From IMG/VR virus record IMGVR_UViG_3300000553_000015: a stretch of 64,000 nt of DNA; one strand, given 5' to 3'. The position numbers were made by a program, and so were the translations under genes. Under the pieces are notes generated by a model, which was not told where the DNA came from, ran no database searches, and worked only from the letters and a program-made list of their open reading frames with translations. Every line of letters starts with the position of its first letter. Position 1 is the stretch's first letter. This document shows, one piece after another, positions 15,373-51,569 of this stretch. The stretch comes from a virus (taxonomy: Duplodnaviria; Heunggongvirae; Uroviricota; Caudoviricetes).

Positions 15373-15375
15373 AGG

Positions 15376-15540: not shown

Positions 15541-15541
15541 T

Positions 15542-16012: not shown

Positions 16013-16013
16013 T

Positions 16014-16457: not shown

Positions 16458-16484
16458 AAATTTATCTCATTTAATAAAATAGAT

Positions 16485-16513
16485 ATTATACATTAAATTT
16501 CTACAATTGTCAA
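16485..16513 (-). promoter_or_regulatory. sigma70-consensus early promoter TTGACA-N17-TATAAT (minus strand)
   Basis: plus tgtcaa 16508-16513 / attata 16485-16490, exact 17-nt spacer, ~27 nt upstream of ATG 16457. Confidence 0.6.
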
Positions 16514-16665
16514 ATATTATGCTGATTTTAATGTTTTAAATTTTCCTTTAAATCGTTCCCACTTAGTAGATGGTTTAGCATATGCATAATCAACCCATAA
16601 ATCTCTATATTTTTTCTCTGGTTTTTTCTAACATTAATCTCATATATTATCTTTTGGATATTTTT

Positions 16666-19958: not shown

Positions 19959-20025
19959 CCTTGTTCAATTGTTTTTTTGTATTTATGAATGACTCATTAG
20001 TATAAATTTATATTTCTTTAATTTT

Positions 20026-29589: not shown

Positions 29590-30870
29590 TCATACATTTT
29601 GTACATGCGGGACTATAAGCTCCGCACCAGATAAATCTAATACCATTCTAGAAGTCCAATAGAACCCCTTGATATTAAATTTGTTCTGCCAAAAACCAAC
29701 AGGGAGCCGATATAAGTCGGCTTCATGATTTAGGGCGCCATTTATATCGGCATCATGGCATACGCCACATTGATTGCATATAAACTCCTTTCCCTTCCTA
29801 TTTGATTTTTGGGTCCATCCACAATCACTACATCTTTGACTTCTATAACTAGCCGATTGCTCGATTACTGGGACACCCAGTTCTTCACATCGCTTCATTA
29901 TCTGTGCATTGATTTGTGTATAAGTCCAATGACTTAAATTTCTTCCCATATTAGAACCTTTTCTCATTTGAAATAACTTTTCTAATCTGAGTTCTTTTAT
30001 ATTTGATAAATCCAATTGATTTATGGACCAATTGATATAATTTGTTCGGTGTTCCTGTACTCGTTTAAAGCCATTACTGCCTTTCTTTTTATATGATAAC
30101 TTATTGATTATACTATGTAAATCATGACCATGCATATCAGCACTAGTTGTTTGTCCATCACTTAATGATAAGCAAGTAACATATCCTTGGTCTGCACCAA
30201 TGATTTTACTACCAGTTGATTTCTCTCGTGTAGTTTCCCATCTGGAATATAAAGTGTTAGTAGAAATCTGCCAACTAGTAATCATTTTATAACCTTTCTT
30301 GGCTAATTGATTTGAATGCCTTGTTGTTTTAATTGGTATATAAATATGTCCATACCTTTTACCAAGTGATGATAATTTCAGCCATCCATCAAAGATACCA
30401 GTGGTATCTGGGATATATTTACAGCAATTACTATCCAAATTTGCTACTAAATTATTGCTATTTCGTGTTGGTTTTGATAATGGATTACTATCAATTTTTG
30501 ATTGTAATTTTGAAATAGATTTATCACCAGCACGCATTTGTTTAGCGAGAACAAATAATTGTTTTCTTCGTTTTTCTGTTCTACTTTTGATAATTGCCAG
30601 AGCTTCCCCTGACGCTAATTTAATTGCCCTTGCTGAAAGATCGGTAATTAAATCGATATCAGTGGTAGAAATAAAACTTGGAACATCTAATTTATTATTT
30701 TTGATATCTAAAGTTCTATTATTGCCCCAAATGATTTTATTATTCCATAAATAATCAACAAACCACCACAATACCCGATCATATTCGGTAATGAATTCTT
30801 TTAATATCAGTTGTTTACCAATATTAGCAAATTTGATATTATGTTGACTTGATTTAATTATTGTTTTCAT
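29590..30870 (-). CDS. tnpB: IS200/IS605-family TnpB (OrfB) RNA-guided nuclease homolog
   Basis: 426 aa; RuvC-I IGADQGY, C-terminal zinc finger CSDCGW…CNQCGVCHDADINGALN (RuvC-III); no tnpA nearby. Confidence 0.8.
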   Translation of the reverse strand: MKTIIKSSQHNIKFANIGKQLILKEFITEYDRVLWWFVDYLWNNKIIWGNNRTLDIKNNKLDVPSFISTTDIDLITDLSARAIKLASGEALAIIKSRTEKRRKQLFVLAKQMRAGDKSISKLQSKIDSNPLSKPTRNSNNLVANLDSNCCKYIPDTTGIFDGWLKLSSLGKRYGHIYIPIKTTRHSNQLAKKGYKMITSWQISTNTLYSRWETTREKSTGSKIIGADQGYVTCLSLSDGQTTSADMHGHDLHSIINKLSYKKKGSNGFKRVQEHRTNYINWSINQLDLSNIKELRLEKLFQMRKGSNMGRNLSHWTYTQINAQIMKRCEELGVPVIEQSASYRSQRCSDCGWTQKSNRKGKEFICNQCGVCHDADINGALNHEADLYRLPVGFWQNKFNIKGFYWTSRMVLDLSGAELIVPHVQNV

Positions 30871-38357: not shown

Positions 38358-39152
38358 ATGAATATTTATACAAACAACGATCCTATTTTTAGATTTTATG
38401 TATACGCATATCTTCGTAAAAAAGATGGAACCCCTTACTATATTGGCAAGGGAACTGGTTATCGAGCTTTCTCAAATGACCATACTGTAAAAGTCCCAAC
38501 TGATAAAAAACGAATAGTTATTATTGAATCAAATTTAAGTAGTATTGGAGCATTTGCAATTGAACGTAGAGTAATTCGATGGTATGGTAGGAAAAATAAT
38601 GGAACTGGTATTTTAAGAAATCTAACTGATGGTGGTGAAGGTGCTCATGGATATAAACATACCGAAGAATATAAAATACATATGTCCAAAATATGTACAG
38701 GAAGAATAATGCCTAGAGAAGCAGTGGAAAAAACAAGACTTGCTAATACAGGCAGAAAAAATCTAAAATTATCATTAGCTATGAAAGGAAGACCATCAAA
38801 AAATAAAGGAAAATTTATGTCGGATATATATAAAGCTACTTGCTCTAATGCACAATCCAAACGGTTTTTAAATTCCGATGAAAGAAATAAATTGGCACTA
38901 CACGGTAAAATTGGAAACGAAAAAACTAGAGAACAATGTAAAAAATTAATTGTAAAAGATCCAAAAGGAAATATTAATGTTTTTATATCACTACCAGATT
39001 TTGCATCAAATATAGGTGCTAAAGCACGAAATATTTATTGTCTTATTAACAAGTATGATGGGGAAATTATACAAAAAGGAAAGTTTGCTGGATATACTTT
39101 CTGGCTTAGGACACCAGAAACTGTATCAGATACGTTAAAAAATATAATGTAA
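38358..39152 (+). CDS. GIY-YIG homing endonuclease with NUMOD3-like repeats
   Basis: [24 protein letters not shown] (GIY…YIG…R); [11 protein letters not shown] and GRPSKNKGK modules. Confidence 0.75.
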
Positions 39153-39647
39153 CCATTCCTTATGTTTAACTTCAAAACCAAATTTCTTACGTTTGTTTAC
39201 TAATTCAAAATAATCAGGTTTATAAGGAGTATTATATGGGCTCTTCCATGGATAGGAATTTCCCTTTTCCGAATTACATTTTGAACATGACAGTGCACAA
39301 TTATTCCAACTAGTTCTTCCACCTTTTGATGATGGGATAACGTGATCTATTGTAGCAGTTTTTAAATTAAGTGTAGTTCCGCAGTATTGACATATTCCAT
39401 CATCTCTTACCAGTAAACTTGCCCGACTAAATTTTACTGTAGTTTTTGGTTTTAAATATTCACGGAGCATTAGAACAGCTGGGACATTAGTTTTCCAATT
39501 TGCAGAGCGAATGGTCCAATTGTCGTGCCACAGCACAACATCGGCTTTTTCTAAAACCATATATTTTATTGAATCCTGCCATGATATAGTGCTGAGTGGC
39601 ATTATACTAACAGGCATTCCTGATGCATTTAGTAATAAACAATCCAT
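39135..39647 (-). CDS. HNH endonuclease
   Basis: CQYCG…[30 protein letters not shown]. Confidence 0.75.
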
Positions 39648-41207: not shown

Positions 41208-42026
41208 TTATCCATTTCGTCTATCAATCCATTCATATATATTCAACCATTTACGTTTTCCAATAGTTGCTTTAAGATGTTTCAAATCTGCCTTTACATC
41301 ATATCTTTCTGTAGTACCAGCTTCTACAAATTCTATAACAGCATCTTCTTGTTCTGCTATTTCAGTAGCGATGTCAAAATACGAGTGTGATAACCCAGTC
41401 CCAACATTCCAGATTCCAGATCCATTGACTTGTTTAATAAAATCAATATGTAATCTACAAACATCACCAACCCATACCCAATCGCGTTTTATGTGTTCTG
41501 CATTATTCCATACTTTTATAGTTCCAGTTGACTTTGCTTCTTCTCTCCATTTATACATAATATCTGCACGACTTCCCTTGGTATACATATATTTTCCATA
41601 TACATTGAAGTACCTGAATCCTTGGACATAAACACTGTGTTCTTGTTGAAAAACCCATCTATCAAATAAGTATTTTGACCAAGCATATGGGGTATGTGGA
41701 TGACAAGGTGCAAATTCACTAAAATTCTTATTAGTTCCATATACATCATGTGTACTCGCATATTGCAAATGAACTTTATTTTTATTGCATTCTTGAAAAA
41801 GCCATTGACTAAACTCATAGTTTTTGTGTATAATGGTATCAACATCTTTATCACTAGTATCGGTAACCGCTCCTAAGTGGATAACCCATTTATATCGTCG
41901 TACATCAGGATAGTTATTTGGATCCCAGTTCCAGATTTCAACATCCCAGAATTCTTCTTGTGCTAACCATTCAAGCATATTTCGTCCAATGAACCCGTTG
42001 GCGCCGGTAACTAGTATTCTCATCAT
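41208..42026 (-). CDS. hldD: NAD-dependent sugar epimerase, ADP-L-glycero-D-manno-heptose 6-epimerase-like
   Basis: VTGANGFIGRN Rossmann, YAWSK catalytic YxxxK, GFRYFNVYG and RDWVWVGDV…NVGTG blocks as in HldD/RfaD. Confidence 0.55.
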   Translation of the reverse strand: MMRILVTGANGFIGRNMLEWLAQEEFWDVEIWNWDPNNYPDVRRYKWVIHLGAVTDTSDKDVDTIIHKNYEFSQWLFQECNKNKVHLQYASTHDVYGTNKNFSEFAPCHPHTPYAWSKYLFDRWVFQQEHSVYVQGFRYFNVYGKYMYTKGSRADIMYKWREEAKSTGTIKVWNNAEHIKRDWVWVGDVCRLHIDFIKQVNGSGIWNVGTGLSHSYFDIATEIAEQEDAVIEFVEAGTTERYDVKADLKHLKATIGKRKWLNIYEWIDRRNG

Positions 42027-42033: not shown

Positions 42034-42062
42034 TTGACATTCAACATCATTTGTAATATAAT
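42034..42062 (+). promoter_or_regulatory. sigma70-consensus promoter TTGACA-N17-TATAAT driving the small-gene array
   Basis: ttgaca 42034-39, tataat 42057-62, ATG 42090. Confidence 0.6.
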
Positions 42063-42089
42063 GGACATTTACTAAATTTAGATTAAATT

Positions 42090-42371
42090 ATGAAAATAAA
42101 AATACAAAAGATGGATGGTAGACACAATGGTAATTCATATTTTACCTATATGGCGTTAATGTATCATTATAATAAATCAGAAAATATGGCTAGAGTACGT
42201 GATATCCGCCAATGGTGTTGGGAACAGTTTGGACCAAGTTGTGAATACTATGAATATGAGGAAATAGCATGTATGGGTGAAGTAAATCCTAAATGGTGTT
42301 GGCTTGGATCTGAAAGAATTTTAATAAAGGATGAAGCAGACCGTAATTGGTTTGCATTGAGGTGGGGATGA
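42090..42371 (+). CDS. WFxLRW-family small protein, member 1 (93 aa)
   Basis: …IRQWCWEQFGP…DEADRNWFALRWG*; stop overlaps next ATG. Confidence 0.6.
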   Translation: MKIKIQKMDGRHNGNSYFTYMALMYHYNKSENMARVRDIRQWCWEQFGPSCEYYEYEEIACMGEVNPKWCWLGSERILIKDEADRNWFALRWG

Positions 42372-42568
42372 GAATACGTAAAATGCCATTTGAAAATAAT
42401 AGCTTTTTATTAAGTAATAACGAAAAAGGTCTAACAACAGTAGAATGGAATAATGTAGCAGAATGGCTTCGAGAACGTAAAATGAAATTTAATATGCAAG
42501 GTGGTGTTTTAACGTTATATCGTGATATTGATTCAACAATGTTTGCATTAAGATGGTGTTCAGAATGA
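42368..42568 (+). CDS. WFxLRW-family small protein, member 2 (66 aa)
   Basis: ATGA-coupled start after GAGGTGG; ends …STMFALRWCSE. Confidence 0.55.
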   Translation: MRIRKMPFENNSFLLSNNEKGLTTVEWNNVAEWLRERKMKFNMQGGVLTLYRDIDSTMFALRWCSE

Positions 42569-42604
42569 AAAATTTGTGTTCTGAAATCTTTTTTTAATCA
42601 TATT

Positions 42605-42838
42605 TTGGTTCCATCTGCATTTACAAAACCATATGAAAATGTTCGGGTTGTCCAAGATTTAAATGAAAAATGGTATACGATTAGATCTAATAGACCAGAG
42701 ATAAACGATTGGATTATTAACCAATCAGATGGATGGCGGTATACTGCAAACCGTAGATTTAAGGATTATTGGCAGGAAGAAAATTGCTATGATCTTAGAG
42801 AAGATGTGTACACTTGGTTTATATTAAGGTGGAAATAA
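42605..42838 (+). CDS. WFxLRW-family small protein, member 3 (start uncertain, no in-frame ATG; TTG/ATT)
   Basis: ends …DVYTWFILRWK*. Confidence 0.4.
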   Translation: MVPSAFTKPYENVRVVQDLNEKWYTIRSNRPEINDWIINQSDGWRYTANRRFKDYWQEENCYDLREDVYTWFILRWK

Positions 42839-43059
42839 TGGATCCAAAATTAGCCGAAGAACGTATAAAACGTGATAAGTTTTATCAAATAATTAGAACT
42901 ATTGCATCTACAGAATGTCATAAGAAATTTGCAGATTTGTCTGAATATATTGAAAAAACATATGGAATATCTATAACAATAGATGGGTATATTACTGCAA
43001 ACTACATAATTGTAAATGAACAAAAGTATATGTTATTTAGGATTAAGTTTGGAATATGA
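42838..43059 (+). CDS. WFxLRW-family small protein, member 4 (73 aa)
   Basis: TAATG overlap start; ends …KYMLFRIKFGI. Confidence 0.5.
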   Translation: MDPKLAEERIKRDKFYQIIRTIASTECHKKFADLSEYIEKTYGISITIDGYITANYIIVNEQKYMLFRIKFGI

Positions 43060-43232
43060 TATCAATACCAATTTGGAAATTTGAAGACCCAATGGAAGTA
43101 ATTTGGTATATCAATAATAATTGGGGTGGCTATGGCACTCGGTGGGATTTAAAAAATTTAGTGGATCTTAGACTGACAAATGATTCAGATTTAACATTTT
43201 TACTATTAAAATTTAACGTGAAAGAACTATGA
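43056..43232 (+). CDS. WFxLRW-family small protein, member 5 (58 aa, missed by ORF track)
   Basis: ATGA overlaps on both ends; ends …DLTFLLLKFNVKEL. Confidence 0.45.
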   Translation: MISIPIWKFEDPMEVIWYINNNWGGYGTRWDLKNLVDLRLTNDSDLTFLLLKFNVKEL

Positions 43233-43564
43233 TCAATAAAATAACAACAGGGCGATATCTAACATCTTATAATTTTAACTCATCCAATTTAGACCCATTA
43301 GCAGAATGTGGTCAAATGAGGTATAAAAATGGTAGAGTAGAATATAATTCTGGTACCGCGTGGTACGAATTACAAGGAGATGCTGCGGTAGATTTATCAT
43401 TTGAAGCAGTACAAATATTAGAATGGGCTAAACAAAAGATGATAGAAGAGATGAATGAAAAGGATATACTTGAAAAGTATCCAGCATTATTAAATGCCAA
43501 GAACAATTACAATATGGTTAAACAAATATGTCAAGCTGAAGAAAACCTTGACAATAACAAATAA
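43229..43564 (+). CDS. hypothetical protein (111 aa, not family)
   Basis: ORF in array. Confidence 0.45.
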   Translation: MINKITTGRYLTSYNFNSSNLDPLAECGQMRYKNGRVEYNSGTAWYELQGDAAVDLSFEAVQILEWAKQKMIEEMNEKDILEKYPALLNAKNNYNMVKQICQAEENLDNNK

Positions 43565-43576
43565 CTGTAGTATACT
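43548..43576 (+). promoter_or_regulatory. sigma70-type promoter TTGACA-N17-TATACT
   Basis: ttgaca 43548-53, tatact 43571-76, then GGAG SD and ATG 43601. Confidence 0.5.
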
Positions 43577-43600
43577 AATAATTTAAATTCGGAGATTTTT

Positions 43601-43957
43601 ATGGACATATTATTAGTCCTTGTATTTTTACAATTAAAACATTACCATGTGGATTTCATGAATCAATCGCAAGATGAAGTTCAGACAAAAGGCATATATG
43701 GTAATATGATTGGTGTAGGGCATAGTGTTAAACATGGTCTTTTAACTTATGCTATTTTCTTATTCATAGTTCCATTCAACCAAGCATTATTTATTGGTAT
43801 AATTGATATAATTTTACATTACCATATCGATTGGATTAAAATGAATTATGGTAATCGTGATATGAATGATAAACAATTTTGGTGTCATATCGGTCTTGAC
43901 CAGCTTTTTCATCATTTGTGTTATATTGGCTATCTTGCATTTTGTTTGGTGATATAA
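43601..43957 (+). CDS. hypothetical His-rich membrane protein (118 aa)
   Basis: 3 predicted TM; HxxxD/HH motifs. Confidence 0.45.
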   Translation: MDILLVLVFLQLKHYHVDFMNQSQDEVQTKGIYGNMIGVGHSVKHGLLTYAIFLFIVPFNQALFIGIIDIILHYHIDWIKMNYGNRDMNDKQFWCHIGLDQLFHHLCYIGYLAFCLVI

Positions 43958-44248
43958 ATGATAACTTTTAATTTTTTAATTTCAAATCCTTGGTCTAATA
44001 CTTGGAATTTGATTTGGGGGACAAATGGGTTACTTACAACCCATAAAGCATGGGAACTTAATCTATATCGCACAGATCAAATTATTAATATCGAGTTTTG
44101 TTTAAGTATTAACTGTGACCACGCAGGGTTGAATACTAAATTAGGGTTGTTTGGTTATACTCTGGAATATACAGTTTATGATACAAGACATTGGGACTAT
44201 GAAAATAATACATGGGAAGTATATGACAGAGAAGAAGAGAACCCCTAA
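43958..44248 (+). CDS. hypothetical protein (96 aa)
   Basis: ORF. Confidence 0.45.
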   Translation: MITFNFLISNPWSNTWNLIWGTNGLLTTHKAWELNLYRTDQIINIEFCLSINCDHAGLNTKLGLFGYTLEYTVYDTRHWDYENNTWEVYDREEENP

Positions 44249-44495
44249 AAAGGAACTAGTTCATTTTGATATAATCGGTCGTAAGATCAAAGTTGGTGAT
44301 TTTGTAGCTGTTAGTGTCTATAATAGATTAGAAGTAGCAAAAGTTATAAAACTCAATCCAAAGATGGTTAAGATACAAATCTTAAATGCGAATACCAATA
44401 CATGGTACAAAGGCGAACACAATAGATATCCAACTGATATGGCTATTTTGGATAATGAATATTTAACATTTTATTTGATAAAACACAGTGCTTAG
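44222..44495 (+). CDS. hypothetical protein (91 aa; start moved to ATG 44222)
   Basis: Track ORF 44151 overlaps previous gene by 98 nt; internal ATG gives 27-nt overlap. Confidence 0.4.
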
Positions 44496-44751
44496 AAAAC
44501 AAGTTAAAGATTTAATAGAATATGATAGTCCTGAATACACAGAACTTCAAGAATGGTTAATAAAACATTTTGGACCAATAGATGACCACAAATTTTGGTC
44601 TACCGACTATATAACTGGCAAAGGTTGGGCAATGATTAAACGGTATCACTGGAATGATTACGGTCGTGAGACAGAATGGTATGTAGAATTTGATGCTAGG
44701 AAATTAAAACGTGCCCAAATGACATGGTTTAGATTAAAATGGATGAAGTAA
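44488..44751 (+). CDS. WFxLRW-family small protein, member 6 (GTG start)
   Basis: …LQEWLIKHFGP…QMTWFRLKWMK*. Confidence 0.45.
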   Translation: MLRKQVKDLIEYDSPEYTELQEWLIKHFGPIDDHKFWSTDYITGKGWAMIKRYHWNDYGRETEWYVEFDARKLKRAQMTWFRLKWMK

Positions 44752-44951
44752 AAATAAGTATCAGTTATATGCCAGACACCGTAATATTGAATCTTCGTGA
44801 TCATTGTGATAGCATGTCTGGGAATGATGAAGAACTGTGGTTGGAAATTCGTAATGCTGAATTACAAAAATTTAATGCAATATATCAAGATCGTGTTCTC
44901 ACATTTGAAAGTACAGCGCATTATCAATGGTTCTTAATGAGGTGGCAATGA
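44739..44951 (+). CDS. WFxLRW-family small protein, member 7 (70 aa)
   Basis: ends …HYQWFLMRWQ*. Confidence 0.5.
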   Translation: MDEVKISISYMPDTVILNLRDHCDSMSGNDEELWLEIRNAELQKFNAIYQDRVLTFESTAHYQWFLMRWQ

Positions 44952-45262
44952 AACCAGTAATAATATCAGAGATGCAATGGCATAATTTATTAATAGAAAT
45001 GTATAAAGATTATCCAAAAAGTGTTCTAGCCATAAGAGAAAAAACTAAGAAAGTTTTGGGATTTACATCAAGGTCGCATCGTACATGGATAGAAAATCCA
45101 ATGTACGATGAATTCATGAAACAATATGCTAATAAAATTGTAGATGAAACTTATATGATTCAACCATCTAGAGGGTATTATTCCAATATGATACACTTAG
45201 ATTTTTATAGTGAGCCAAAGAGAACTTTTTTCTTATTAAAGTATAGTGAATTTTTGAGTTGA
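44948..45262 (+). CDS. WFxLRW-family small protein, member 8 (104 aa)
   Basis: ATGA-coupled; ends …TFFLLKYSEFLS (degenerate motif). Confidence 0.5.
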   Translation: MKPVIISEMQWHNLLIEMYKDYPKSVLAIREKTKKVLGFTSRSHRTWIENPMYDEFMKQYANKIVDETYMIQPSRGYYSNMIHLDFYSEPKRTFFLLKYSEFLS

Positions 45263-45287
45263 CATTTAACCAGTTTTATTATACAAT
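45259..45287 (+). promoter_or_regulatory. sigma70-type promoter TTGACA-N17-TACAAT
   Basis: ttgaca 45259-64, tacaat 45282-87; GGAGAG SD and ATG 45317. Confidence 0.5.
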
Positions 45288-45316
45288 ATTATTTTTAATT
45301 TTATGTGGAGAGTTAT

Positions 45317-45535
45317 ATGAAGCACGTATCCGTGGGAATGTTCAAACTACCAGGTCTATCATTTGACCGTGATGAAATGAATGATGATTTACGCGATGAA
45401 ATGATTGATTGGAGTGAAAGCTCTAATTGTGGAATTTTTATGACTGATAGGTTATGGTCATTTAAAAATGAAGGCCATCGTGATTTCTTTTTATTAAGAT
45501 GGTCTGAAAGAGTTCCTAAAAAAGAAGAAAAATAA
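45317..45535 (+). CDS. WFxLRW-family small protein, member 9 (72 aa; ATG 45317 preferred over track start 45305)
   Basis: ends …DFFLLRWSERVPKKEEK. Confidence 0.5.
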   Translation: MKHVSVGMFKLPGLSFDRDEMNDDLRDEMIDWSESSNCGIFMTDRLWSFKNEGHRDFFLLRWSERVPKKEEK

Positions 45536-45542
45536 GAGAATA

Positions 45543-45824
45543 ATGAGAAATAGCCATAAATTATTAAACAAATCTGATAAATTTTCGCTATCTGAACATT
45601 CTGTAAGAAAACAAAAATATTATCAAATAGATTTAAATTTAAGACACCGGTTTTGGACAGCGGCAGATAAGATGACAGAATATGATTCTATATTGAATAG
45701 TCAAAATAGAATCAATAAGTTTGGTTGGAAATATGACAATGAAGAAGAAGCAAAAGCAAAATATACATGGGCTGTTTTAAAGTGGGACAAAGAAGAAACT
45801 AGTACCAATTATAAAAATGTCTGA
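45543..45824 (+). CDS. WFxLRW-family small protein, member 10 (93 aa, C-terminal extension)
   Basis: …KYTWAVLKWDKEETSTNYKNV. Confidence 0.45.
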   Translation: MRNSHKLLNKSDKFSLSEHSVRKQKYYQIDLNLRHRFWTAADKMTEYDSILNSQNRINKFGWKYDNEEEAKAKYTWAVLKWDKEETSTNYKNV

Positions 45825-46002
45825 AGAATTACACGATTATTATGGTGTACTGCTATCTAGTTGTAATAGTACACGATGGGACCAAGTTACCTGGTGTACT
45901 GAACAATTTAAAGTTGATACCAACCGATGGTTTCAGTTTCAAAACTATATCTACTTTAGAAATGAATCAGATTTTACTTGGTATTTGTTAAAGTGGGGAT
46001 AA
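45817..46002 (+). CDS. WFxLRW-family small protein, member 11 (61 aa)
   Basis: …DFTWYLLKWG*. Confidence 0.5.
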   Translation: MSEELHDYYGVLLSSCNSTRWDQVTWCTEQFKVDTNRWFQFQNYIYFRNESDFTWYLLKWG

Positions 46003-46005
46003 TAC

Positions 46006-46269
46006 ATGGATAATTTTAAGATATTTAACGACTCCGTGTATGAAAGAAAAATATTTCATAGAGTGGTAATATATATGACATCACCGACACAGAATGAAAT
46101 ATTAGATATTTGGCTAAATTCTGAAGAAGGACAATGGGTTAGTAATCATTGTATACATATAGAGGTAGTTAAACATTACCATCCATATACCCTTGGATAC
46201 GAATATTATATAACAGCTTATATTAAACCATCAGATTACACATTCTACACAATCAAGTTTTCTACTTGA
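46006..46269 (+). CDS. WFxLRW-family small protein, member 12 (87 aa, degenerate motif)
   Basis: …DYTFYTIKFST. Confidence 0.45.
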   Translation: MDNFKIFNDSVYERKIFHRVVIYMTSPTQNEILDIWLNSEEGQWVSNHCIHIEVVKHYHPYTLGYEYYITAYIKPSDYTFYTIKFST

Positions 46270-46294
46270 CATCTATTCCTGTAATTGTTATAAT
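46266..46294 (+). promoter_or_regulatory. sigma70-consensus promoter TTGACA-N17-TATAAT with TG extended -10; spacer contains 8-bp inverted repeat CCTGTAAT…ATTACAGG
   Basis: ttgaca 46266-71, tgt-tataat 46286-94. Confidence 0.55.
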
Positions 46295-46322
46295 AGAACT
46301 TTAACGATTACAGGAACCATCA

Positions 46323-46772
46323 ATGACTACTTATTTTATCAAAAAAGGCAGAAAATATATTCCTGCACGTGAATATGACAATGAATTTAACGATTCTTGG
46401 CCAGAAGGCACTCATCTAACAGTATGCAAACCAGGGTCTAGATCTAGACGATATAACATTGAACCAGCATTTGCACCAATGATTGCTGCTGGAAGTTATG
46501 CAGAAGACCGCATTGCTGCTATTATTGTAGATAAGTTGACTTATACTCCAGAAATACCACCATATACACAAGAACAAAAAGAAGCATGGGACCGTATGAG
46601 AGAAGTCTATGGGGAAGACTTGTGTAGATTGAAAACTTCTACTATAATGGAAGCTGTGAGAGCTGGTGTTTCAGAAATGATTAAAGAAGCTGAAGAAATA
46701 TTAGAGAACCCAGCTTTACAACAAAGTTATGACAATTTTTTATTATTAAGTAAACTAACAAGAGGAAAATAA
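46323..46772 (+). CDS. hypothetical protein (149 aa)
   Basis: ORF after promoter. Confidence 0.5.
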   Translation: MTTYFIKKGRKYIPAREYDNEFNDSWPEGTHLTVCKPGSRSRRYNIEPAFAPMIAAGSYAEDRIAAIIVDKLTYTPEIPPYTQEQKEAWDRMREVYGEDLCRLKTSTIMEAVRAGVSEMIKEAEEILENPALQQSYDNFLLLSKLTRGK

Positions 46773-46773
46773 T

Positions 46774-47121
46774 ATGATGATTTTATTAGTAATTGGTGCA
46801 TTTTTGTTTGGCATGTTTATTGGTGGATTTTTATGGAATAAAATAATAATGCGTGCTTATGCACGAGATCCAAAATCAGTTATAGAGTTATTTGACAACG
46901 CTACTAGATCATATACTGTTGAAAGTGATGAGGGATATGAGTATGTAGAATTAGAAGTTGAGAAACATGGTAATCAAATTATGATGTGGTTTAAAGAATG
47001 TGGGACATTTGTATCACAAGGTGAATCAGTAGACGAAGCATTAGAGGTTGCACATGAACGTTTTCCAAAGTTTAATTTTCATTTTGAATTACCAGATGAT
47101 ATTGAATATACGGTAGCATAA
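46774..47121 (+). CDS. hypothetical protein with N-terminal TM helix (115 aa)
   Basis: MMILLVIGAFLFGMFIGGFLW. Confidence 0.5.
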   Translation: MMILLVIGAFLFGMFIGGFLWNKIIMRAYARDPKSVIELFDNATRSYTVESDEGYEYVELEVEKHGNQIMMWFKECGTFVSQGESVDEALEVAHERFPKFNFHFELPDDIEYTVA

Positions 47122-47348
47122 TGGATAATGTAATTCAATTACCAGGCGAACTACACAGGTGTCCGTTATATTGGATAAATTTTATTAAACATTATGTTAA
47201 ACATTATAAAATTGTCAATAGTGTAGAGTTAGATACTATGTTAAATTCAGAATTTAATGCAACTATTGGTGGTAATTTGTATGATGGATTTAAAATTACA
47301 TTTAAAAAACCAGAACACAAGACCTGGTTTATTTTTAAGTGGAGTTAA
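47121..47348 (+). CDS. WFxLRW-family small protein, member 13 (75 aa)
   Basis: …HKTWFIFKWS*. Confidence 0.5.
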   Translation: MDNVIQLPGELHRCPLYWINFIKHYVKHYKIVNSVELDTMLNSEFNATIGGNLYDGFKITFKKPEHKTWFIFKWS

Positions 47349-47349
47349 A

Positions 47350-47592
47350 ATGGAACTTTATAAAGAAGAATTTGTCTGGCAGGTTAATTTATACTATGAT
47401 GATAGATTGAAAATAGAATCTACATTGCAAGAAAATGTAGATTGGGCAGAAGCATTATGGGAATGGTGTGAAGAAACTTTTGGTGAACAATATGAACGAT
47501 GGGTTCATGATTATCGTGAATCCTATGATTGTGATTTGTTTTGTTTCTTACGTGAAGAAGATCGTAATTGGTTTGTATTGAGGTGGTCGTGA
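47350..47592 (+). CDS. WFxLRW-family small protein, member 14 (80 aa)
   Basis: GGAG-N6-ATG; …EWCEETFGEQYERW…DRNWFVLRWS*. Confidence 0.55.
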   Translation: MELYKEEFVWQVNLYYDDRLKIESTLQENVDWAEALWEWCEETFGEQYERWVHDYRESYDCDLFCFLREEDRNWFVLRWS

Positions 47593-47807
47593 AAGCATTT
47601 AATGAAGTTTTTATATATCTTATAGATTTAGAAAATAACGAACGTTTCTTATTAAGTGAATATATTGATTGGTGTACTGATACATTTGGTGAACATGGAA
47701 TAAAATGGCATGTAGTAAATACAGAATTTGATTATCCTAGCATTAGATTTTTAACGGAGGAAGATCGTAATTGGTTTATGTTAAGGTGGTCAAATGAACA
47801 ATATTAG
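47589..47807 (+). CDS. WFxLRW-family small protein, member 15 (GTGA-coupled start)
   Basis: …DWCTDTFGEHGIKW…DRNWFMLRWSNEQY. Confidence 0.45.
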   Translation: MKAFNEVFIYLIDLENNERFLLSEYIDWCTDTFGEHGIKWHVVNTEFDYPSIRFLTEEDRNWFMLRWSNEQY

Positions 47808-48042
47808 ATGCAGCACAGACTTACTTGGTCAAAAACTTTATTGTATTGAAATAAAAGTTCCATCAAATGCCAATCAGGTATACAACTGGCTGGTTGAAAG
47901 TTTTGGTGGTTTAGAGAACGGTGGATATTCTTATTATCTTAAAGACCAGGAATGGGCATTCTATCTAACAACTATTGGCACAATTCAAGTTAAATTTAGA
48001 AACGAAGCATATGCAAATTGGTTTTTATTGAGGTGGTCATGA
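47794..48042 (+). CDS. WFxLRW-family small protein, member 16 (82 aa)
   Basis: …NWLVESFGG…AYANWFLLRWS*. Confidence 0.55.
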   Translation: MNNIRCSTDLLGQKLYCIEIKVPSNANQVYNWLVESFGGLENGGYSYYLKDQEWAFYLTTIGTIQVKFRNEAYANWFLLRWS

Positions 48043-48308
48043 AAACACAACCAAAACAATATGAATATCCAGACGGTACTAAATCATGGCGATTAAATGG
48101 CCGATTACACCGAGAAGATGGTCCAGCATATGAAGGTATAACTGGTCATAAAGAATGGTGGTTAAATGGCAAAAGACATAGACTGGATGGCCCTGCTGTT
48201 GAATACCCAAATGGGTATAAAGCATGGTTTTTAAATGGCAAACAATATACAGAAGAAGAATTTGTTATGGTCCAATTCATGAATGGTAATAATATTTATA
48301 GGAAATAA
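48039..48308 (+). CDS. MORN-repeat small protein (89 aa; ATGA-coupled)
   Basis: WRLNGRLHREDGPAYE / WWLNGKRHRLDGPAVE / WFLNGKQYTEEEF repeats. Confidence 0.55.
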   Translation: MKTQPKQYEYPDGTKSWRLNGRLHREDGPAYEGITGHKEWWLNGKRHRLDGPAVEYPNGYKAWFLNGKQYTEEEFVMVQFMNGNNIYRK

Positions 48309-48313
48309 TCATA

Positions 48314-48532
48314 ATGTATATTGATGAAGAATTATATACATTTCATATTGTCTTAACGGATGAAGATTTTAAGAAACGTAAAGAAATGTATAAATGGTGT
48401 GAAGAACAATGGGGTAAACCACAAAACTTGAATAAATCCAGTAGTTGGATTTATACTAGCACCAATTACGGTAATGTATTTAAATTTAAAAATGAAGCAG
48501 ACCGTAATTGGTTTATATTGAGGTTTTCATGA
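48314..48532 (+). CDS. WFxLRW-family small protein, member 17 (72 aa)
   Basis: …KWCEEQWGKP…DRNWFILRFS*. Confidence 0.55.
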   Translation: MYIDEELYTFHIVLTDEDFKKRKEMYKWCEEQWGKPQNLNKSSSWIYTSTNYGNVFKFKNEADRNWFILRFS

Positions 48533-48747
48533 AAACAATACGAATAGTTTCATATCCAGAACTTCGAAAATTATTTAGTAATCACTTCTCTAGTAGAATT
48601 GGAAATACATCCAGAGAAGGTGGCGAGATGTTTTTACATAGTATTGGATACAAGTCGGCAAAATGGGTGCCTGGGACATATCAATATTCATTAAGTGATG
48701 CAGATTATACTTGGTTTATTTTAAGGTGGGGACATGAAAAAGATTAG
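48529..48747 (+). CDS. WFxLRW-family small protein, member 18 (72 aa)
   Basis: ATGA-coupled; …DYTWFILRWGHEKD. Confidence 0.5.
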   Translation: MKTIRIVSYPELRKLFSNHFSSRIGNTSREGGEMFLHSIGYKSAKWVPGTYQYSLSDADYTWFILRWGHEKD

Positions 48748-48961
48748 AAAGAATTATATAACTGTTCCAGGGTGGTTGAACTTTTACCAAGAGACTGTTC
48801 TTAAGAGTAAGAGTTTAGTTGGATTATTACATGTTGATAGAATTGCTAGAATTGATAATATCAATAAAGAGTTAGAACCATTTCACGCAACATTAGAAAA
48901 AACATATCTTACATTTGAAAGTGAAGCGCATTATAATTGGTTTGTATTGAGGTGGTCATGA
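48734..48961 (+). CDS. WFxLRW-family small protein, member 19 (75 aa)
   Basis: …HYNWFVLRWS*. Confidence 0.55.
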   Translation: MKKIRKNYITVPGWLNFYQETVLKSKSLVGLLHVDRIARIDNINKELEPFHATLEKTYLTFESEAHYNWFVLRWS

Positions 48962-49215
48962 AAGAATATACGTTTCACAGATTTTCTTTTTTAGATAGAG
49001 AGTATGAATATGGGCTTATTTTTTCATTGTGTGATATCTATAGCATTAATTGGTATGATTTATATCAACCAGGTTCTGGTTGGCATGAAACCTATTTGCC
49101 ACCAATTCATGACTGGTGTCATAATTTTGGAAGAGACCGTGTGCTCGTAGCAGGAACTCATTTTCATTTTAAAAATAGAGAAGATATGAATTGGTTTTTA
49201 TTGAGATGGGGATGA
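48958..49215 (+). CDS. WFxLRW-family small protein, member 20 (85 aa)
   Basis: ATGA-coupled; …DWCHNFGRDRVL…DMNWFLLRWG*. Confidence 0.55.
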   Translation: MKEYTFHRFSFLDREYEYGLIFSLCDIYSINWYDLYQPGSGWHETYLPPIHDWCHNFGRDRVLVAGTHFHFKNREDMNWFLLRWG

Positions 49216-49388
49216 AGTATAATTATTGGATTAAACATTGCTGTTTGTCGTCTATTGTCAAAGAACAAGCAGCGTGGATGAAATCATCATTTGGTAATCG
49301 TGGTACACGTTGGACACACAAATCTGGCGTATTTTGGTTTGAAAATGAAGAAGATCGTAATTGGTTCTTAATGAGGTGGAGTAAATGA
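49212..49388 (+). CDS. WFxLRW-family small protein, member 21 (58 aa)
   Basis: ATGA-coupled; …SSFGNRGTRW…DRNWFLMRWSK*. Confidence 0.5.
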   Translation: MKYNYWIKHCCLSSIVKEQAAWMKSSFGNRGTRWTHKSGVFWFENEEDRNWFLMRWSK

Positions 49389-49678
49389 AGATAGTAAAGT
49401 TAGATAGAAGAAATAGGGCATTTAAGCATGGATTTACCCACGCTGTAAGATTTGGTGCAGGTGAAGGAATTTCTAATTACATGAACATTAAAAATTATTT
49501 AGAAGAACGGTACCCACGTCCTACTAGGTATATTTGGTGCATGGCTAGTCATATTAAATATGCCGGTAAATGGGAAACTGTAGAGAGTAAAGGTCATTAC
49601 TCTAAAAGAATTTATTGGATCTGTGTTAAGAATGAAGCTTTACTTTCAATGGCATTGTTGTCAATTGAGATGAATTAA
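49385..49678 (+). CDS. small protein, last gene of array (97 aa; possibly degenerate family member …RIYWICVKNEALL…)
   Basis: ATGA-type overlap start. Confidence 0.45.
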   Translation: MKIVKLDRRNRAFKHGFTHAVRFGAGEGISNYMNIKNYLEERYPRPTRYIWCMASHIKYAGKWETVESKGHYSKRIYWICVKNEALLSMALLSIEMN

Positions 49679-49692
49679 TATTTTAAGCAATA

Positions 49693-49721
49693 AAAAGCCC
49701 GCTAAATGCGGGCTTTCTTTT
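49693..49721. terminator. bidirectional rho-independent terminator GCCCGC-taaat-GCGGGC plus TTTCTTTT
   Basis: Perfect 6-bp GC stem (9 with A/T extension), U-tract; A-run on other side. Confidence 0.75.
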
Positions 49722-49727
49722 GTCTGG

Positions 49728-50603: not shown

Positions 50604-51569
50604 ATGACCAACAAACTTATTTATGTCCCGTATACATATTGCATAACATTTCTAATAACCGGCCAACGTTATTACGGATGTAGGTATGCAAATAGTAGAA
50701 AAAATGTGGCAAATCCAACTGAGTTTTGGGTGACATATTTTACATCATCAAAAGAAATAAAAAATCTAATTGCTCTACATGGCAAGGAATTATTTTCTGT
50801 TCAAATACGAAAAATATTTAAAACTAGAAAAGATACAGTCGCTTGGGAACATAAGTTCTTAACAAGAATTAATGCAGCGAAAAGTCCATATTGGCTTAAT
50901 AAAAATAACGGTGGTAATAAATTTCATGCTACTGAAGATTCTATTGCAAAAACTGCAATAACTAGAAAGGCTAAATGTTTGTATGAAAAAACATTAATTG
51001 CAGAAAAGAAAAAAGCTACAGAAGCAGCTAGAAGTGCAGAAGAAAACTATACAATTAAAGAAAAGCAACGACTAGCAAAAACTTCAAGAACCCCAGCAGA
51101 AAGATTATTGGTCAATGCAAAGAAAAAAGCTACAGAAGATGCAAAATCTCCAGAGGAAAAATTAGCAACGAAAGAAAAACAAAGATTAGCTAAAATTAAT
51201 AGAACATCAGAAGAAAAATTGGAAACTAAACAAAAAGAATGGAAAACAAAGAATGCTAGGTCACCTGAAGAAAAACAAACTCAAATAGAAAAACAAAAAA
51301 CAACACTTAAAGCAACCATCGAGGCAAAACCGTTAGAAGAAAAATTAGATATTATAGCAAAGCGCAAAGCTACATTTGATGCTAAAACACCAGAAGAAAA
51401 ATTAGTAATAACACTAAAACTAAAAAATTCTCATGCTGCTAGAACTCCTGAACAGGAGAATGAACGAAAACGGAAAGAAAAACAAACAAAAAGTGGTAGG
51501 ACCGCCGAACAAAAACTGCAGTCAAGATTAAAATATAAAGAAACTTATAATCGCAATCATCCAAAATAA
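50604..51569 (+). CDS. GIY-YIG-like homing endonuclease with long array of K/E-rich (S/T)PEEK repeat modules
   Basis: YVPYTYCITFLITGQRYYGCRY (xxY-N10-YYG-R); at least 8 repeats of …K(T/S)(P/A)EEKL…. Confidence 0.5.
   Translation: MTNKLIYVPYTYCITFLITGQRYYGCRYANSRKNVANPTEFWVTYFTSSKEIKNLIALHGKELFSVQIRKIFKTRKDTVAWEHKFLTRINAAKSPYWLNKNNGGNKFHATEDSIAKTAITRKAKCLYEKTLIAEKKKATEAARSAEENYTIKEKQRLAKTSRTPAERLLVNAKKKATEDAKSPEEKLATKEKQRLAKINRTSEEKLETKQKEWKTKNARSPEEKQTQIEKQKTTLKATIEAKPLEEKLDIIAKRKATFDAKTPEEKLVITLKLKNSHAARTPEQENERKRKEKQTKSGRTAEQKLQSRLKYKETYNRNHPK

Follow-up and report, generated by a model that had tools for sequence, protein, structure and literature searches.

Gene content and extent of the array

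The analysed stretch, referred to below as the window, is 64 kb of viral DNA. A 7.7-kb run at 42034–49722 holds 29 tightly packed + strand genes of 58–149 aa (g01 to g29), and is the only long + strand block of the window. The GC skew within the block is +0.21 to +0.24, against mostly negative values in the rest of the window (about −0.25 to +0.05).

A reading made from the sequence only had described small genes sharing a C-terminal ending of the W-F-x-L-R-W type, and this ending is borne out. With the whole 64 kb translated in all six frames, the strict form W[FY]x[LIM][RK]W, at most 6 residues from the stop codon, occurs 12 times, and all 12 matches fall inside the block on the + strand. 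A looser form occurs 15 times in the block and once elsewhere, where the mean over 200 shuffles was 0.13. The small-gene array is real and far exceeds chance expectation. Overlaps, which had been claimed for about half of the genes, are found at 18 of the 28 gene junctions; ten of these are ATGA or GTGA, two are TAATG and six are longer overlaps (8–26 nt), which supports the proposal that the genes are translationally coupled.

Family membership

Membership was judged with a profile (independent HMM) of 130 sequences taken from other phages only, none of which is 50% or more identical to any window gene. With this profile, 14 genes score 17–62 bits and are regarded as firm members, and four further genes at 11–16 bits, for which hhalign rises to 85–97% after addition of orthologues, are regarded as probable members. 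The earlier count of at least 21 members was therefore too high. All-against-all BLASTP among the window genes gives 81 pairs with E < 0.01, and the alignments extend over 45–60 residues (40–80 for core paralogues), far past the terminal hexapeptide, as expected of one true family. No match to the family exists in Pfam, PHROGs, NCBIfam or the PDB. Judged from these comparisons, 18 of the 29 genes make up what appears to be an undescribed, phage-only family of single-domain proteins of about 60 residues. In metagenomes, 681 homologue clusters were obtained at 50% identity (E ≤ 1e-3), nearly all of 55–100 aa.

The firm members begin with g01 (42090–42371, 93 aa, ending DRNWFALRWG, 51 bits, hhalign 98%), which overlaps g02 by ATGA. 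The next, g03 (42605–42838, 77 aa from a TTG codon), is firm by profile (18.9 bits; hhalign 96% with orthologues) and 5'-truncated: compared with the sister strain L002, it lacks about 14 nt, which leaves the native ATG at 42565 out of frame and removes the ATGA-overlapping start, whereas the L002 version has 95 aa and retains the overlap. This is the sole case here of a member disrupted by a stop codon or frameshift. Further along, g11 (44739–44951, 70 aa, 24.5 bits) sub-groups with g19 and g26 (BLASTP E of 3e-11 to g26), g13 (45317–45535, 72 aa, 26 bits) carries a 10-residue tail and has orthologues that are 85% identical in the distant relatives L006 and L007, and g15 (45817–46002) has 61 aa and 46.9 bits. 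The remaining firm members are g19 (47121–47348, 75 aa, WFIFKWS, 17.2 bits, hhalign 86%), g20 (47350–47592, 80 aa, 46.5 bits), g21 (47589–47807, 72 aa, 62 bits), which starts with GTG in a GTGA overlap and whose identical protein is found on at least 24 metagenome contigs, g22 (47794–48042, 82 aa, 43.8 bits), g24 (48314–48532, 72 aa, 60 bits), g25 (48529–48747, 72 aa, 21 bits, hhalign 93%), which is missing from L002, g26 (48734–48961, 75 aa, 24.5 bits), g27 (48958–49215, 85 aa, 34 bits) and g28 (49212–49388, 58 aa, 51 bits), which has the minimal domain size.

The probable members are g02 (42368–42568, 66 aa, MFALRWCSE, 14.7 bits, hhalign 94% once orthologues were added), g05 (43056–43232, 58 aa, FLLLKF, hhalign 96.8% over 46 columns with orthologues), g10 (44488–44751, 87 aa, GTG start, WLIKHFGP and WFRLKWMK, 15.8 bits, hhalign 92.7% with orthologues over just 22 columns) and g12 (44948–45262, 104 aa, FFLLKYSEFLS, 14.9 bits, hhalign 85% over the C-terminal 21 columns with orthologues). 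For three other genes, a degenerate ending is the only feature in common with the family, and their membership is unproven: g04 (42838–43059, 73 aa, LFRIKF, 9.4 bits, hhalign 1–7%), which has conserved positional orthologues in L006 and L007, g14 (45543–45824, 93 aa, motif-like WAVLKW with a 12-residue tail, 8.1 bits, hhalign 8–49%) and g16 (46006–46269, 87 aa, FYTIKF, hhalign 0.4–33%), whose 4.3 bits are less than the score of the non-member g07. The relation of the block's last gene, g29 (49385–49678, 97 aa), is likewise unproven (hhalign 1–41%); its orthologues, 34–40% identical, end the array in the relatives L005 and L006.

Unrelated genes also lie within the array, as had been proposed. 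These include g07 (43601–43957, 118 aa), a His-rich multi-pass membrane protein with DUF3307 (PF11750 at 7e-6; PHROG 2470 at 2e-15), g18 (46774–47121, 115 aa), with an N-terminal transmembrane segment and an acidic C-terminal part (charge −11), and g23 (48039–48308, 89 aa), whose WxLNGxxHRxDGPA repeats resemble a MORN variant by eye, with no match to the Pfam MORN models; the g23 type has one copy here and, in L002, four in tandem and two elsewhere. No family signal was found by hhalign in g18, in g06 (43229–43564, 111 aa, orthologues 38–47% identical in L005, L006, L007 and L011) or in the acidic g08 (43958–44248, 96 aa, orthologues in L006 and L007). The conserved, unrelated g17 (46323–46772, 149 aa) has no match in Pfam or PHROG and has orthologues in L005 and L006 that are 57–62% identical. 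The gene g09 (44223–44495, 90 aa), with FYLIKH, is not a member and belongs to a different family, DUF7205: it matches PHROG 2251 at 3.5e-9 with hhalign below 1%, and identical genes carry a precomputed PF23835 annotation.

Predicted fold and conserved residues

The core domain has about 57 residues, is predicted to be beta-alpha-beta-beta-alpha, and ends 1–2 residues before the C-terminus. AlphaFold2 gives the same confident fold for both genes modelled, the representative g20 (pLDDT 91.5, pTM 0.78) and g28 (pLDDT 86.9). Most of the conserved residues are aromatic: Y10, W39, C40, F44, G45, W51, F66, F75 and W79 in g20 numbering. Across 149 representatives, W39 is invariant (100%) and C40, F44, G45, W51 and F66 reach 90, 86, 95, 97 and 98%, so that the central W-C-x-E-x-F-G motif noted earlier is real. 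Conservation is restricted to core positions, and the pI of the members ranges from 4.2 to 9.6. Alternatively, the proteins might be small regulators of KH-like or ferredoxin-like fold that bind RNA or DNA of the host or the phage, e.g., in translational or transcriptional control; we consider this rather improbable.

Dual coding of the conserved ending

The conserved codons for L-R-W-S/G-stop read TTGAGGTGGTCATGA, and each cassette thereby provides its successor with both a Shine-Dalgarno sequence (GAGGTG) and an ATG. Of the 13 motifs in the window, 10 encode their Arg by AGG, which elsewhere makes up 6–8% of Arg codons. AGA is used by g02, which has no close start codon downstream, and by g13, whose following start is 40 nt off (40–48 nt for the two genes); g27 is an exception, using AGA despite a close next start. 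In g19, the last codons TGG AGT TAA place GGAG upstream of the g20 start.

The same tendency was seen outside the window in 112 members from ten unrelated IMG/VR loci, 69 of them with the ATGA overlap and 83 with a single residue after the motif. Where an ATG is nearby, 67 of 89 cases have AGG; where none is, 2 of 10 do, the background being 11.5%. A recognisable Shine-Dalgarno 4-mer precedes just 11 of the 32 long ORFs of the window, which indicates that Shine-Dalgarno dependence is partial in the host. The AGG bias could partly reflect homogenisation of the junctions by gene conversion, rather than translational selection.

As the most conserved stretch doubles as Shine-Dalgarno sequence and ATG for the following gene, with codon choice shaped by that role, the family might be an artefact of a regulatory and recombination cassette (ribosome-binding site and start codon) common to the ends of unrelated genes. 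However, the conserved positions reach 40 residues upstream of the junction, the core paralogues can be aligned far into the protein, g20 and g28 share their predicted fold, and Arg-Trp is retained with the non-Shine-Dalgarno codon AGA where the next gene is not close. These observations contradict the artefact, which is given a very small probability.

Promoters and terminator

The perfect TTGACA-N17-TATAAT promoter reported before g01 is present at 42034–42062 on the + strand (P1; 12/12, 27 nt before g01), and the strong terminator reported after the array was found at 49694–49716 (+ strand; to 49722 with the CTTTTG) as an intrinsic terminator, AAAGCCCGC-TAAAT-GCGGGCTTT, then CTTTTG, whose 9-bp stem contains 6 G-C pairs and which has a T run. 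It is the block's only convincing terminator-like site on the + strand; the single other match of the scan on this strand, at 49307–49330 inside g28, has 3 G-C pairs. The block is not a single operon with one promoter, since further consensus sites on the + strand lie at 43548–43576 (P2; TTGACA-N17-TATACT, 11/12, g06/g07 gap), 45259–45287 (P3; TTGACA-N17-TACAAT, 11/12, g12/g13 gap) and 46266–46294 (P4; TTGACA-N17-TATAAT, 12/12, extended TG, g16/g17 gap). These multiple promoters, and the dual coding of the ending, had been missed in the sequence-only reading.

The three or four consensus sigma70 promoters occupy the only sizeable intergenic gaps of the block. Conservation in L002 amounts to 98.6% for P1 (72 nt compared) and to 100% for P3 and P4 (76 and 73 nt, respectively), while the genes of L002 are about 90% identical. 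P2 was not found in L002, in which the g06/g07 gap is missing, and the evidence for this promoter-like site is weaker than for the other three putative promoters. The placement of the array behind host-type sigma70 promoters is confirmed and fits early expression. The early timing would follow from promoter type only, and promoters that match the sigma70 consensus perfectly are frequent throughout the window (10 in 64 kb).

Cassette exchange, age and relatives

Exact identity tracts of 17–24 nt link the cassette junctions, where the same junction sequence recurs; a 24-nt tract is common to g26 and g20. The breakpoints relative to the sister strain lie at this sequence, and the coupling is always left intact. 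In L002, h28 consists of the g24 body and the g25 tail, g27 is swapped for another member, and an additional member, h23, is present; this turnover is concentrated in the 3' third of the array. The database protein P0012 is a chimaera of the first 31 residues of g15 and the C-terminal half of another member. The common 3' motif is a recombination site at which cassettes are added, deleted and swapped between strains.

The array is collinear with those of L006, L005, L007 and L011 at 33–85% amino-acid identity, most members having positional orthologues in these distant relatives, and a third lineage has it at the same location. Since no pair of paralogues is more than 55% identical (38% where the alignment covers over half of the length), positional orthologues are kept, and the pooled dN/dS against the sister strain is 0.35, the array is old and has been maintained. 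The proposal of a set that diversifies and was expanded by tandem duplication is therefore half right: the paralogues are old and under purifying selection, not rapidly diversifying. These values also argue against filler ORFs, non-functional or selfish, that are kept up by duplication only, and so does the absence of recent duplicates here and in a 64-gene array (best paralogue identity at most 69%). Comparable small-ORF regions of T4-like cyanophages are described as deletable in the laboratory (PMC4503421), which would suit filler; we regard this explanation, too, as highly improbable.

Arrays are present in all other retrieved loci of the family, the 64 members just mentioned occupying 17.5 kb of one IMG/VR contig. 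The members might assemble together as subunits by beta-edge pairing, with coupling setting fixed proportions; tight ATGA coupling is a typical feature of operons for protein complexes, and the predicted fold has an exposed three-stranded sheet. However, some arrays have a few genes and others up to 64, and strains differ by the gain, loss and exchange of members, which would be incompatible with a defined complex. The cassette design accounts for the coupling equally well, and such an assembly is quite unlikely.

The same array is carried by metagenome contigs of 305–356 kb, which indicates a jumbo phage. The description as a T4-like phage is not supported by the window, within which no T4 core gene was identified. 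Indirect links to T4 are a SegE-like endonuclease, homologues elsewhere that are fused to Gp23 fragments and, beside arrays on other contigs, UvsW-like and gp41-like helicases.

Possible roles of the family

The Gp23 fusions bear on a second interpretation, which connects the proteins with the capsid or its assembly: instead of being early effectors in the cytoplasm, they could be internal proteins that are packaged and then injected along with the DNA, or head-associated factors. In several homologues of different sub-branches, the segment before the domain matches the first 30–50 positions of Pfam Gp23 (T4 major capsid protein), passing the gathering score in 4 of 6 tested homologues, and aligns with residues 74–130 of phage JSE gp23. 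The gp23 region concerned is described as its most conserved part and holds the EF-Tu-binding Gol peptide (PMC3014915), and the segment falls in this Gol-peptide region. In relatives, the Gp23-fused gene lies within the array, flanked by g02 and g03 orthologues. These fusions in other phages point away from host-interaction effectors. However, the segment is carried by none of the 18 members of the window, the promoters of the block are of the host type, recognisable head genes are not close to it, no signal for cleavage or targeting was found, and a fusion may just lend a binding peptide to one member. A capsid link is accordingly judged unlikely, if the least so of the alternatives.

Early host-interaction effectors are our best guess. 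Purifying selection and long-term orthology would be expected under any conserved function and are not specific to host interaction. We think it reasonably probable that the head-to-tail array of phage family genes encodes an early host-interaction toolkit. The sequence shows that the block is read one way, from three or four host-type sigma70 promoters to the single intrinsic terminator, with each cassette bringing the Shine-Dalgarno sequence and ATG for its successor, the rare codon AGG being used when the start codon is close by, and that the junction sequence is the breakpoint for deletion, replacement and addition of cassettes. The products would be soluble, cytoplasmic and made early by host RNA polymerase, and may present differing surfaces on the same small scaffold, as suggested by the pI spread and the unrelated N-terminal parts. 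Each member would most likely bind its own host target, or possibly a phage target, and the array may thus be a toolkit for takeover or anti-defence in which each member is retained for its own job.

Layout of the Block and Membership of the Family

The block at 42034–49722 (+), in which 29 genes of 58–149 aa were called (g01–g29, numbered in order), is the sole long plus-strand block of the 64-kb window. Its GC skew is +0.21 to +0.24, and the values elsewhere are mostly negative, at about −0.25 to +0.05. In a six-frame search of the window, the ending W[FY]x[LIM][RK]W within 6 residues of a stop was found 12 times, and all 12 occurrences are in the block on the plus strand, which bears out the array of small genes with a shared ending described in the sequence-only reading. 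A looser form of the ending occurs 15 times in the block and once elsewhere, where the shuffle expectation is 0.13; therefore, the motif array is real and not a product of chance.

Adjacent genes overlap at 18 of the 28 junctions (ten ATGA/GTGA, two TAATG and six overlaps of 8–26 nt), in agreement with the earlier estimate that about half of the genes start in such an overlap. At the remaining junctions, six gaps are 0–7 nt long, and only four are longer (36–54 nt). The gene g23 (48039–48308, +), inside the array, had been read as a MORN-repeat gene; its WxLNGxxHRxDGPA units are MORN-variant-like by eye, but the Pfam models MORN and MORN_2 gave no match, and the sole match of g23 against Pfam at E ≤ 0.01 was a weak one to DUF6745.

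Family membership was scored with a profile freed of circularity, built from 130 sequences from other phages, none of which is 50% or more identical to any window gene. Against this independent profile, 14 genes scored 17–62 bits, g10, g12, g02 and g05 scored 11–16 bits, g04 and g14 scored 8–9 bits, and g16 scored lower than a non-member. When positional orthologues from related contigs were added, g02, g05, g10 and g12 rose to an hhalign probability of 85–97%; membership of g04, g14, g16 and g29 was unsupported in hhalign even with these orthologues. The gene g09 was rejected as a member, as it is a DUF7205/PHROG 2251 protein and the source of all four PHROG matches. The family itself thus stands, whereas the proposed count of 21 or more paralogues resolves into 14 firm members, four probable ones, three with the motif only and one wrong assignment.

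The all-against-all BLASTP comparison of the block genes gave 81 pairs with E < 0.01. The core set of g01, g13, g15, g20, g21, g22, g24, g27 and g28 is alignable over 40–80 residues, so that the relationship extends well beyond the C-terminal hexapeptide, and g11, g19 and g26 form a sub-group within the family. The aligned architecture consists of a helix leading to W-C-x-E-x-F-G, followed by (R)W, a strand h-x-F, and then E-x-D-x-x-W-F-x-L-R-W.

When 1.84 billion representative proteins were searched exhaustively with the family profile, the kind of database check proposed for the family, 681 clusters (50% identity) were returned at E ≤ 1e-3; almost all are 55–100 aa long and carry the domain at the extreme C-terminus. 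The top match, P0001 (1052 aa, 18 matching stretches), was discarded because it is repetitive and contains NWFCI by coincidence. A word-indexed search of proteins yielded few homologues (first 6, later 27), every one unnamed, and the cluster look-up gave no names for homologues. Neither the 22 candidates nor 40 homologues had a relevant match in Pfam-A, PHROGs v4, NCBIfam 20 or the PDB sequences, which is consistent with the family not having been recognised in the sequence-only reading.

Predicted Fold and Surface

The AlphaFold2 model of g20, based on 40 aligned sequences, has a pLDDT of 91.5 and a pTM of 0.78, and is composed of a strand (residues 10–14), two helices (16–25 and 32–44), two strands (51–56 and 61–66) and a final helix (69–79). 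The first of these helices is an insertion found in only 11% of the family members. The minimal member, g28 (58 aa), was modelled as beta-alpha-beta-beta-alpha with a pLDDT of 86.9, so that both models give the same confident domain, as expected if the members share a fold. The domain lies at the C-terminus, and 16 of the 22 motif-bearing genes, including 13 of the 18 supported members, stop no more than 2 residues past the motif. The conserved positions, in g20 numbering, are Y10, W39, C40, F44, G45, W51, F66, E69, D71, F75, L77 and W79; because they are mostly aromatic or hydrophobic, it is suggested that they form the structural core. The net charge of the window members ranges from −13 to +5 and the pI from 4.2 to 9.6.

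The ferredoxin-like fold has a fourth strand, which the family domain lacks, and type I KH domains have the order beta-alpha-alpha-beta-beta-alpha with a GXXG loop between the helices, whereas the family domain has no GXXG and does not conform. No sequence relation of the domain to ferredoxin-like, ACT or KH proteins was found, and the Foldseek search of the family fold against the PDB gave no match. That the members are small nucleic-acid-binding regulators is regarded as quite improbable, and their assembly into hetero-oligomers as very improbable.

C-Terminal Codons as Ribosome-Binding Site and Start Codon

The ending L-R-W-S-stop is encoded as TTG AGG TGG TCA TGA, which holds both GAGGTG and an ATG overlapping the stop. 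GAGGTG is complementary to the 3′ end of the 16S rRNA. At the junctions, GAGGTG or AAGGTG sits 3–6 nt ahead of the ATG. The motif Arg is AGG in 10 of the 13 cases in the window, and AGG makes up 6–8% of the Arg codons elsewhere. AGA is found at this position in g02 and g13, where the next start is 40–48 nt away, and also in g27, where the next start is close. The last residue before TGA is any codon ending in A (TCA, GGA, CAA, GAA, ATA or CTA), which accounts for the S/G ending that had been noticed. Therefore, the conserved C-terminal codons would double as the ribosome-binding site (RBS) and start codon for the gene that follows, with the caveat that a recognisable Shine-Dalgarno 4-mer is found in only 11 of the 32 long ORFs of the window, and the array genes are predicted to be translationally coupled by the stop/start overlaps and the internal Shine-Dalgarno sequences.

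A family-wide set was made up of 112 distinct members taken from ten IMG/VR loci. Of these, 83 stop one residue past the motif and 69 have the ATGA overlap. The motif Arg is AGG in 67 of 89 cases with an ATG within 9 nt and in 2 of 10 without one, against a background of 11.5% in these ten loci. Because the 112-member set shows the same overlaps and the same AGG bias, the RBS/start pattern is family-wide. The motif is nevertheless a feature of the protein, because Arg-Trp is kept with non-Shine-Dalgarno codons and the conservation reaches 40 residues upstream; the idea that the family is a mere shared regulatory cassette is contradicted by the data. The codon pattern of the motif may also owe something to gene conversion between junctions.

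The coupled ATGA operons of bacteria and phages are similar in that the stop and start overlap and the Shine-Dalgarno lies within the upstream coding sequence. Unlike in ordinary ATGA operons, the overlap and the Shine-Dalgarno are here built into a conserved protein motif, across unrelated phages, so that every cassette would bring the signals for the next one.

Promoters and Transcription Units

The block opens with the perfect promoter TTGACA-N17-TATAAT at 42034–42062 (+) and closes with a hairpin terminator at 49694–49716 (+), which has a 9-bp stem with 6 G-C pairs and a T run, so that both boundaries are where they had been placed. However, a single operon between them is not borne out, since consensus plus-strand promoters are present in three of the four long gaps: TTGACA-17-TATACT at 43548 (+), TTGACA-17-TACAAT at 45259 (+) and TTGACA-17-TATAAT with an extended TG at 46266 (+). 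In L002, the sister strain, the promoter at 43548 is missing, and those at 42034, 45259 and 46266 are 98.6–100% conserved over 72–76 nt, where the genes are about 90% identical. The hairpin at 49694–49716 is the only convincing terminator-like hairpin of the block on the plus strand. Because promoters occur in the long gaps and three are conserved in L002, the block is predicted to comprise at least three co-directional transcription units sharing one terminator.

Perfect TTGACA-N17-TATAAT sites are common, with ten in the 64-kb window. On account of this abundance, the phage evidently relies on the host sigma70 polymerase for much of this region, as judged from the promoters; and because of this reliance, we infer that the array is probably expressed early. 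Six perfect sites at 53607, 54681, 56198, 59184, 61935 and 63609 (−) precede small minus-strand ORFs at 53.6–63.6 kb, which look like a second block driven by the host polymerase. Others are at 6713 and 16513 (−) and at 30890 (+). No Rfam families and no tRNAs were found in the window.

Age of the Array and Exchange of Cassettes

The paralogues of the window are at most 55% identical for any pair, and at most 38% identical when aligned over more than half of their length. Against L002, the pooled dN/dS is 0.35 both for family members and for the other genes; the proposal that the family is filler DNA is contradicted by the data. The dS against L002 ranges from 0 to 1.07 across the genes, and this spread points to a mosaic history of the array. 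The array is collinear in distant relatives (IMG/VR loci L005/L010, L006, L007, L011 and L016), where positional orthologues of most genes are 33–85% identical in amino acids and that of g13 is 85% identical. Clear one-to-one orthologues are missing mainly for g24–g28, in the 3′ third. A third lineage carries the array at the same site, between the epimerase and Band_7 genes, with other insertions. Rapid diversification was rejected in view of the dN/dS and the positional orthologues in distant relatives; the array, which had been described as diversifying, is instead old, with anciently separated paralogues in collinear order.

Exact tracts of 17–24 nt are common to the junctions of different cassettes, and g20 and g26 share TAATTGGTTTGTATTGAGGTGGTC. 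In L002, the gene h28 consists of the body of g24 and the tail of g25 (…WFVLRWGHEKD), so that exactly one cassette has been cleanly lost or gained, and the junction falls within the motif. L002 also has a different member, h30, in place of g27, and two extra genes, the family member h23 and the unrelated h14. The database protein P0012 is identical to g15 (45817–46002) in residues 1–31 and continues with a different family C-terminal half, and is thus a natural chimaera between paralogues. Recombination of the array cassettes at the motif is well supported by these sequence comparisons.

Other differences between the strains were also found. The MORN-like gene of the g23 type is present once in the window and four times in tandem in L002 (8048–9343), which has two further copies on the other strand, at 16700–17400 (−), and a NUMOD3 homing endonuclease inserted inside the array (2654–3421, −). 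The gap that separates g02 from g03 (42565–42605), the last of the four long ones, is a deletion scar, as about 14 nt present in L002 have been lost. Because of this deletion, the original start of g03, which overlapped the preceding stop as ATGA, is no longer in frame; what remains is an ORF of 10 codons and, after it, a g03 remnant that starts at TTG. The gene g03 may thus be a pseudogene, or it may be expressed by re-initiation. A SegE-like GIY-YIG homing endonuclease (50604–51569, +) lies directly past the array terminator and is missing there in L002, and an HNH endonuclease is encoded at 39135–39647 (−).

Host Phage and Occurrence of the Arrays

A metagenome contig of 305,761 bp contains the window sequence identically, and the contigs of relatives are up to 356 kb long; therefore, the window phage is a jumbo phage. 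The gene g21 is carried by 46 blocks of the sequence collection. A scan of 20 long ORFs of the window turned up no T4 core gene (gp23, gp20, gp43, gp32 or others). The best matches of the ribonucleotide reductase (RNR), at about 50% identity, are in jumbo phages of 349–366 kb and in Proteus and Cronobacter phages of about 90 kb. Searches with the Band_7 protein and a 399-aa protein gave scattered hosts and no taxonomic signal.

Several other genes of the window were observed. A 426-aa ORF at 29590–30870 (−) carries a Cas12f1-like TNB domain (PF07282, 1e-14), so that this jumbo phage genome has a TnpB-like gene. The 1751-aa protein at 7899–13154 (−) is fibre-like or a virion protein (PHROGs 6002, 23837, 4636 and 33119) with many internal repeats of about 45 residues, …TAVGTVTTGTWCGSIGAVNGxNITNLNAANLTGTLASAVTSSSL…; a 485-aa plus-strand ORF at 11632–13089, wholly inside this gene, looks like a composition artefact. 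A co-directional gene run at 314–7509 (−) includes a carbamoyltransferase (1186–2889), and an NAD-dependent sugar epimerase at 41208–42026 (−) adjoins the array; the genes of these two regions may modify sugars or the cell surface.

Every IMG/VR locus retrieved through the motif holds an array, and the arrays, in unrelated phage genomes, range from 14 to 64 genes. The largest is on the 94-kb contig IMGVR_UViG_3300044613_002694 (loci L008 and L018), where 17.5 kb of one strand (contig positions about 3200–20750) hold 64 members (E < 1e-3), mostly with ATGA overlaps; the median identity to the best paralogue is 44%, and no member exceeds 69%. Some array-bearing contigs encode UvsW-like and gp41-like helicases. 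Among 50,697 GenBank phage records, the array gave no match by megablast, and g20 and the distant homologue P0167 gave none by tblastn; the family therefore appears not to be detectable in cultured phage genomes at the sensitivity of these two tblastn queries. The motif FxxE[EA]DRNWF was absent from 185,579 bacterial and archaeal species genomes, which is a weak negative because the pattern is narrow.

Fusions to a Segment of the Major Capsid Protein

Several longer homologues in different sub-branches carry the N-terminal segment …LLPMIRKxMPxLIAxQIVGVQPM…, namely the database proteins P0023, P0121, P0110, P0074 and P0124 and genes at L007 9659–10156, L006 1–489 and L016 6730–7212. In relatives, the fused gene lies between the orthologues of g02 and g03, and it is not present in the window. 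The segment matches the first 30–50 positions of Pfam Gp23, the T4 major capsid protein, with four of the six tested passing the gathering score, and aligns to residues 74–130 of phage JSE gp23. The Gol region, of 29 residues, lies in the first quarter of gp23, is its most conserved part, binds EF-Tu and triggers the Lit protease (PMC3014915). From its position and conservation, the fused segment is probably the Gol region itself. These fusions suggest a capsid-linked role of the family, which is nonetheless considered improbable; they also point to EF-Tu binding and capsid-sensing defences as a functional lead.

Comparison with Known Systems and Possible Function

The closest described phenomenon is that of the hyperplastic or PeSL regions of T4-type phages. 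PeSL stands for promoter-early stem-loop, a name from which host-type early promoters are read. According to two papers, the PeSLs are short conserved repeats between the small ORFs of these regions and mediate modular shuffling between close relatives, by insertion, deletion and replacement (Arbiol et al. 2010, PMC2839356; Comeau et al. 2014, PMC4122927). The array resembles the regions so described in being a block of many small accessory ORFs with short conserved repeats between them. However, its repeat is a coding 3′ end with an RBS and start codon instead of an intergenic promoter and stem-loop, its promoters lie in three or four gaps with no adjoining hairpin and do not make up a PeSL unit, and its ORFs are paralogues of one family, whereas those of PeSL regions are unrelated ORFans. 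Apart from the PeSL papers, the literature search on the family or comparable arrays found nothing relevant.

The host-takeover module of Bacillus phage SPO1, reportedly described by Stewart et al. in 1998 as comprising 24 small early genes served by numerous early promoters and strong RBSs, is likewise a compact set of one-directional small genes with several host-sigma promoters and strong RBSs, and an early role is presumed in both. The SPO1 genes do not form one paralogous family and have no dual-coded C-terminus, and the function of the SPO1 module has experimental tests, whereas the array is known from sequence. Among eukaryotic large DNA viruses, the ASFV MGF110/360/505 families and the amplification of poxvirus K3L (gene accordions) are also tandem paralogues in large viral genomes, with a copy number and content that vary between strains and a presumed role in host interaction. 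In contrast, their hosts are eukaryotic, their proteins are unrelated and their amplifications are recent, whereas the paralogues of the array are ancient and individually conserved.

The genetic organisation of the array, that is, a real family with several host-type promoters, embedded RBS/start signals and recombination at the motif, is well supported. As for function, it is tentatively proposed that the products are early proteins, each with a binding target of its own, which would serve host takeover or anti-defence. This proposal fits best because of the small scaffold with unrelated surfaces, the individually conserved paralogues, the host-type promoters and the accessory location. No match in homology or fold to characterised anti-defence inhibitors (Acr, Ocr, Arn, sponges and others) was found.

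A broader proposal, which we hold to be doubtful, is that the arrays are a large unrecognised repertoire for counter-defence or host manipulation, the prokaryotic counterpart of the multigene families of eukaryotic viruses. On a minimal scaffold, the variable face of each paralogue would neutralise a different host factor. Arrays of up to 64 genes would be built and reshuffled by self-propagating cassettes, each ending in the next RBS and start codon, and the Gol-region fusions would handle EF-Tu or the sensing of capsid protein by the host, or would enter the head for injection.

The small accessory gene blocks of large phages are the main source of new anti-defence and host-takeover proteins, and consist mostly of unrelated ORFans. 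The array stands out among them as one compact fold that has no entry in curated libraries, yet forms 681 clusters at 50% identity, and as a defined family with a usable profile it can be tested against libraries of defence systems. The dual use of a conserved protein C-terminus, which would serve as RBS, start codon and recombination site, offers a simple and testable mechanism, and such C-terminal cassettes would explain how the arrays can grow and shrink without loss of expression.
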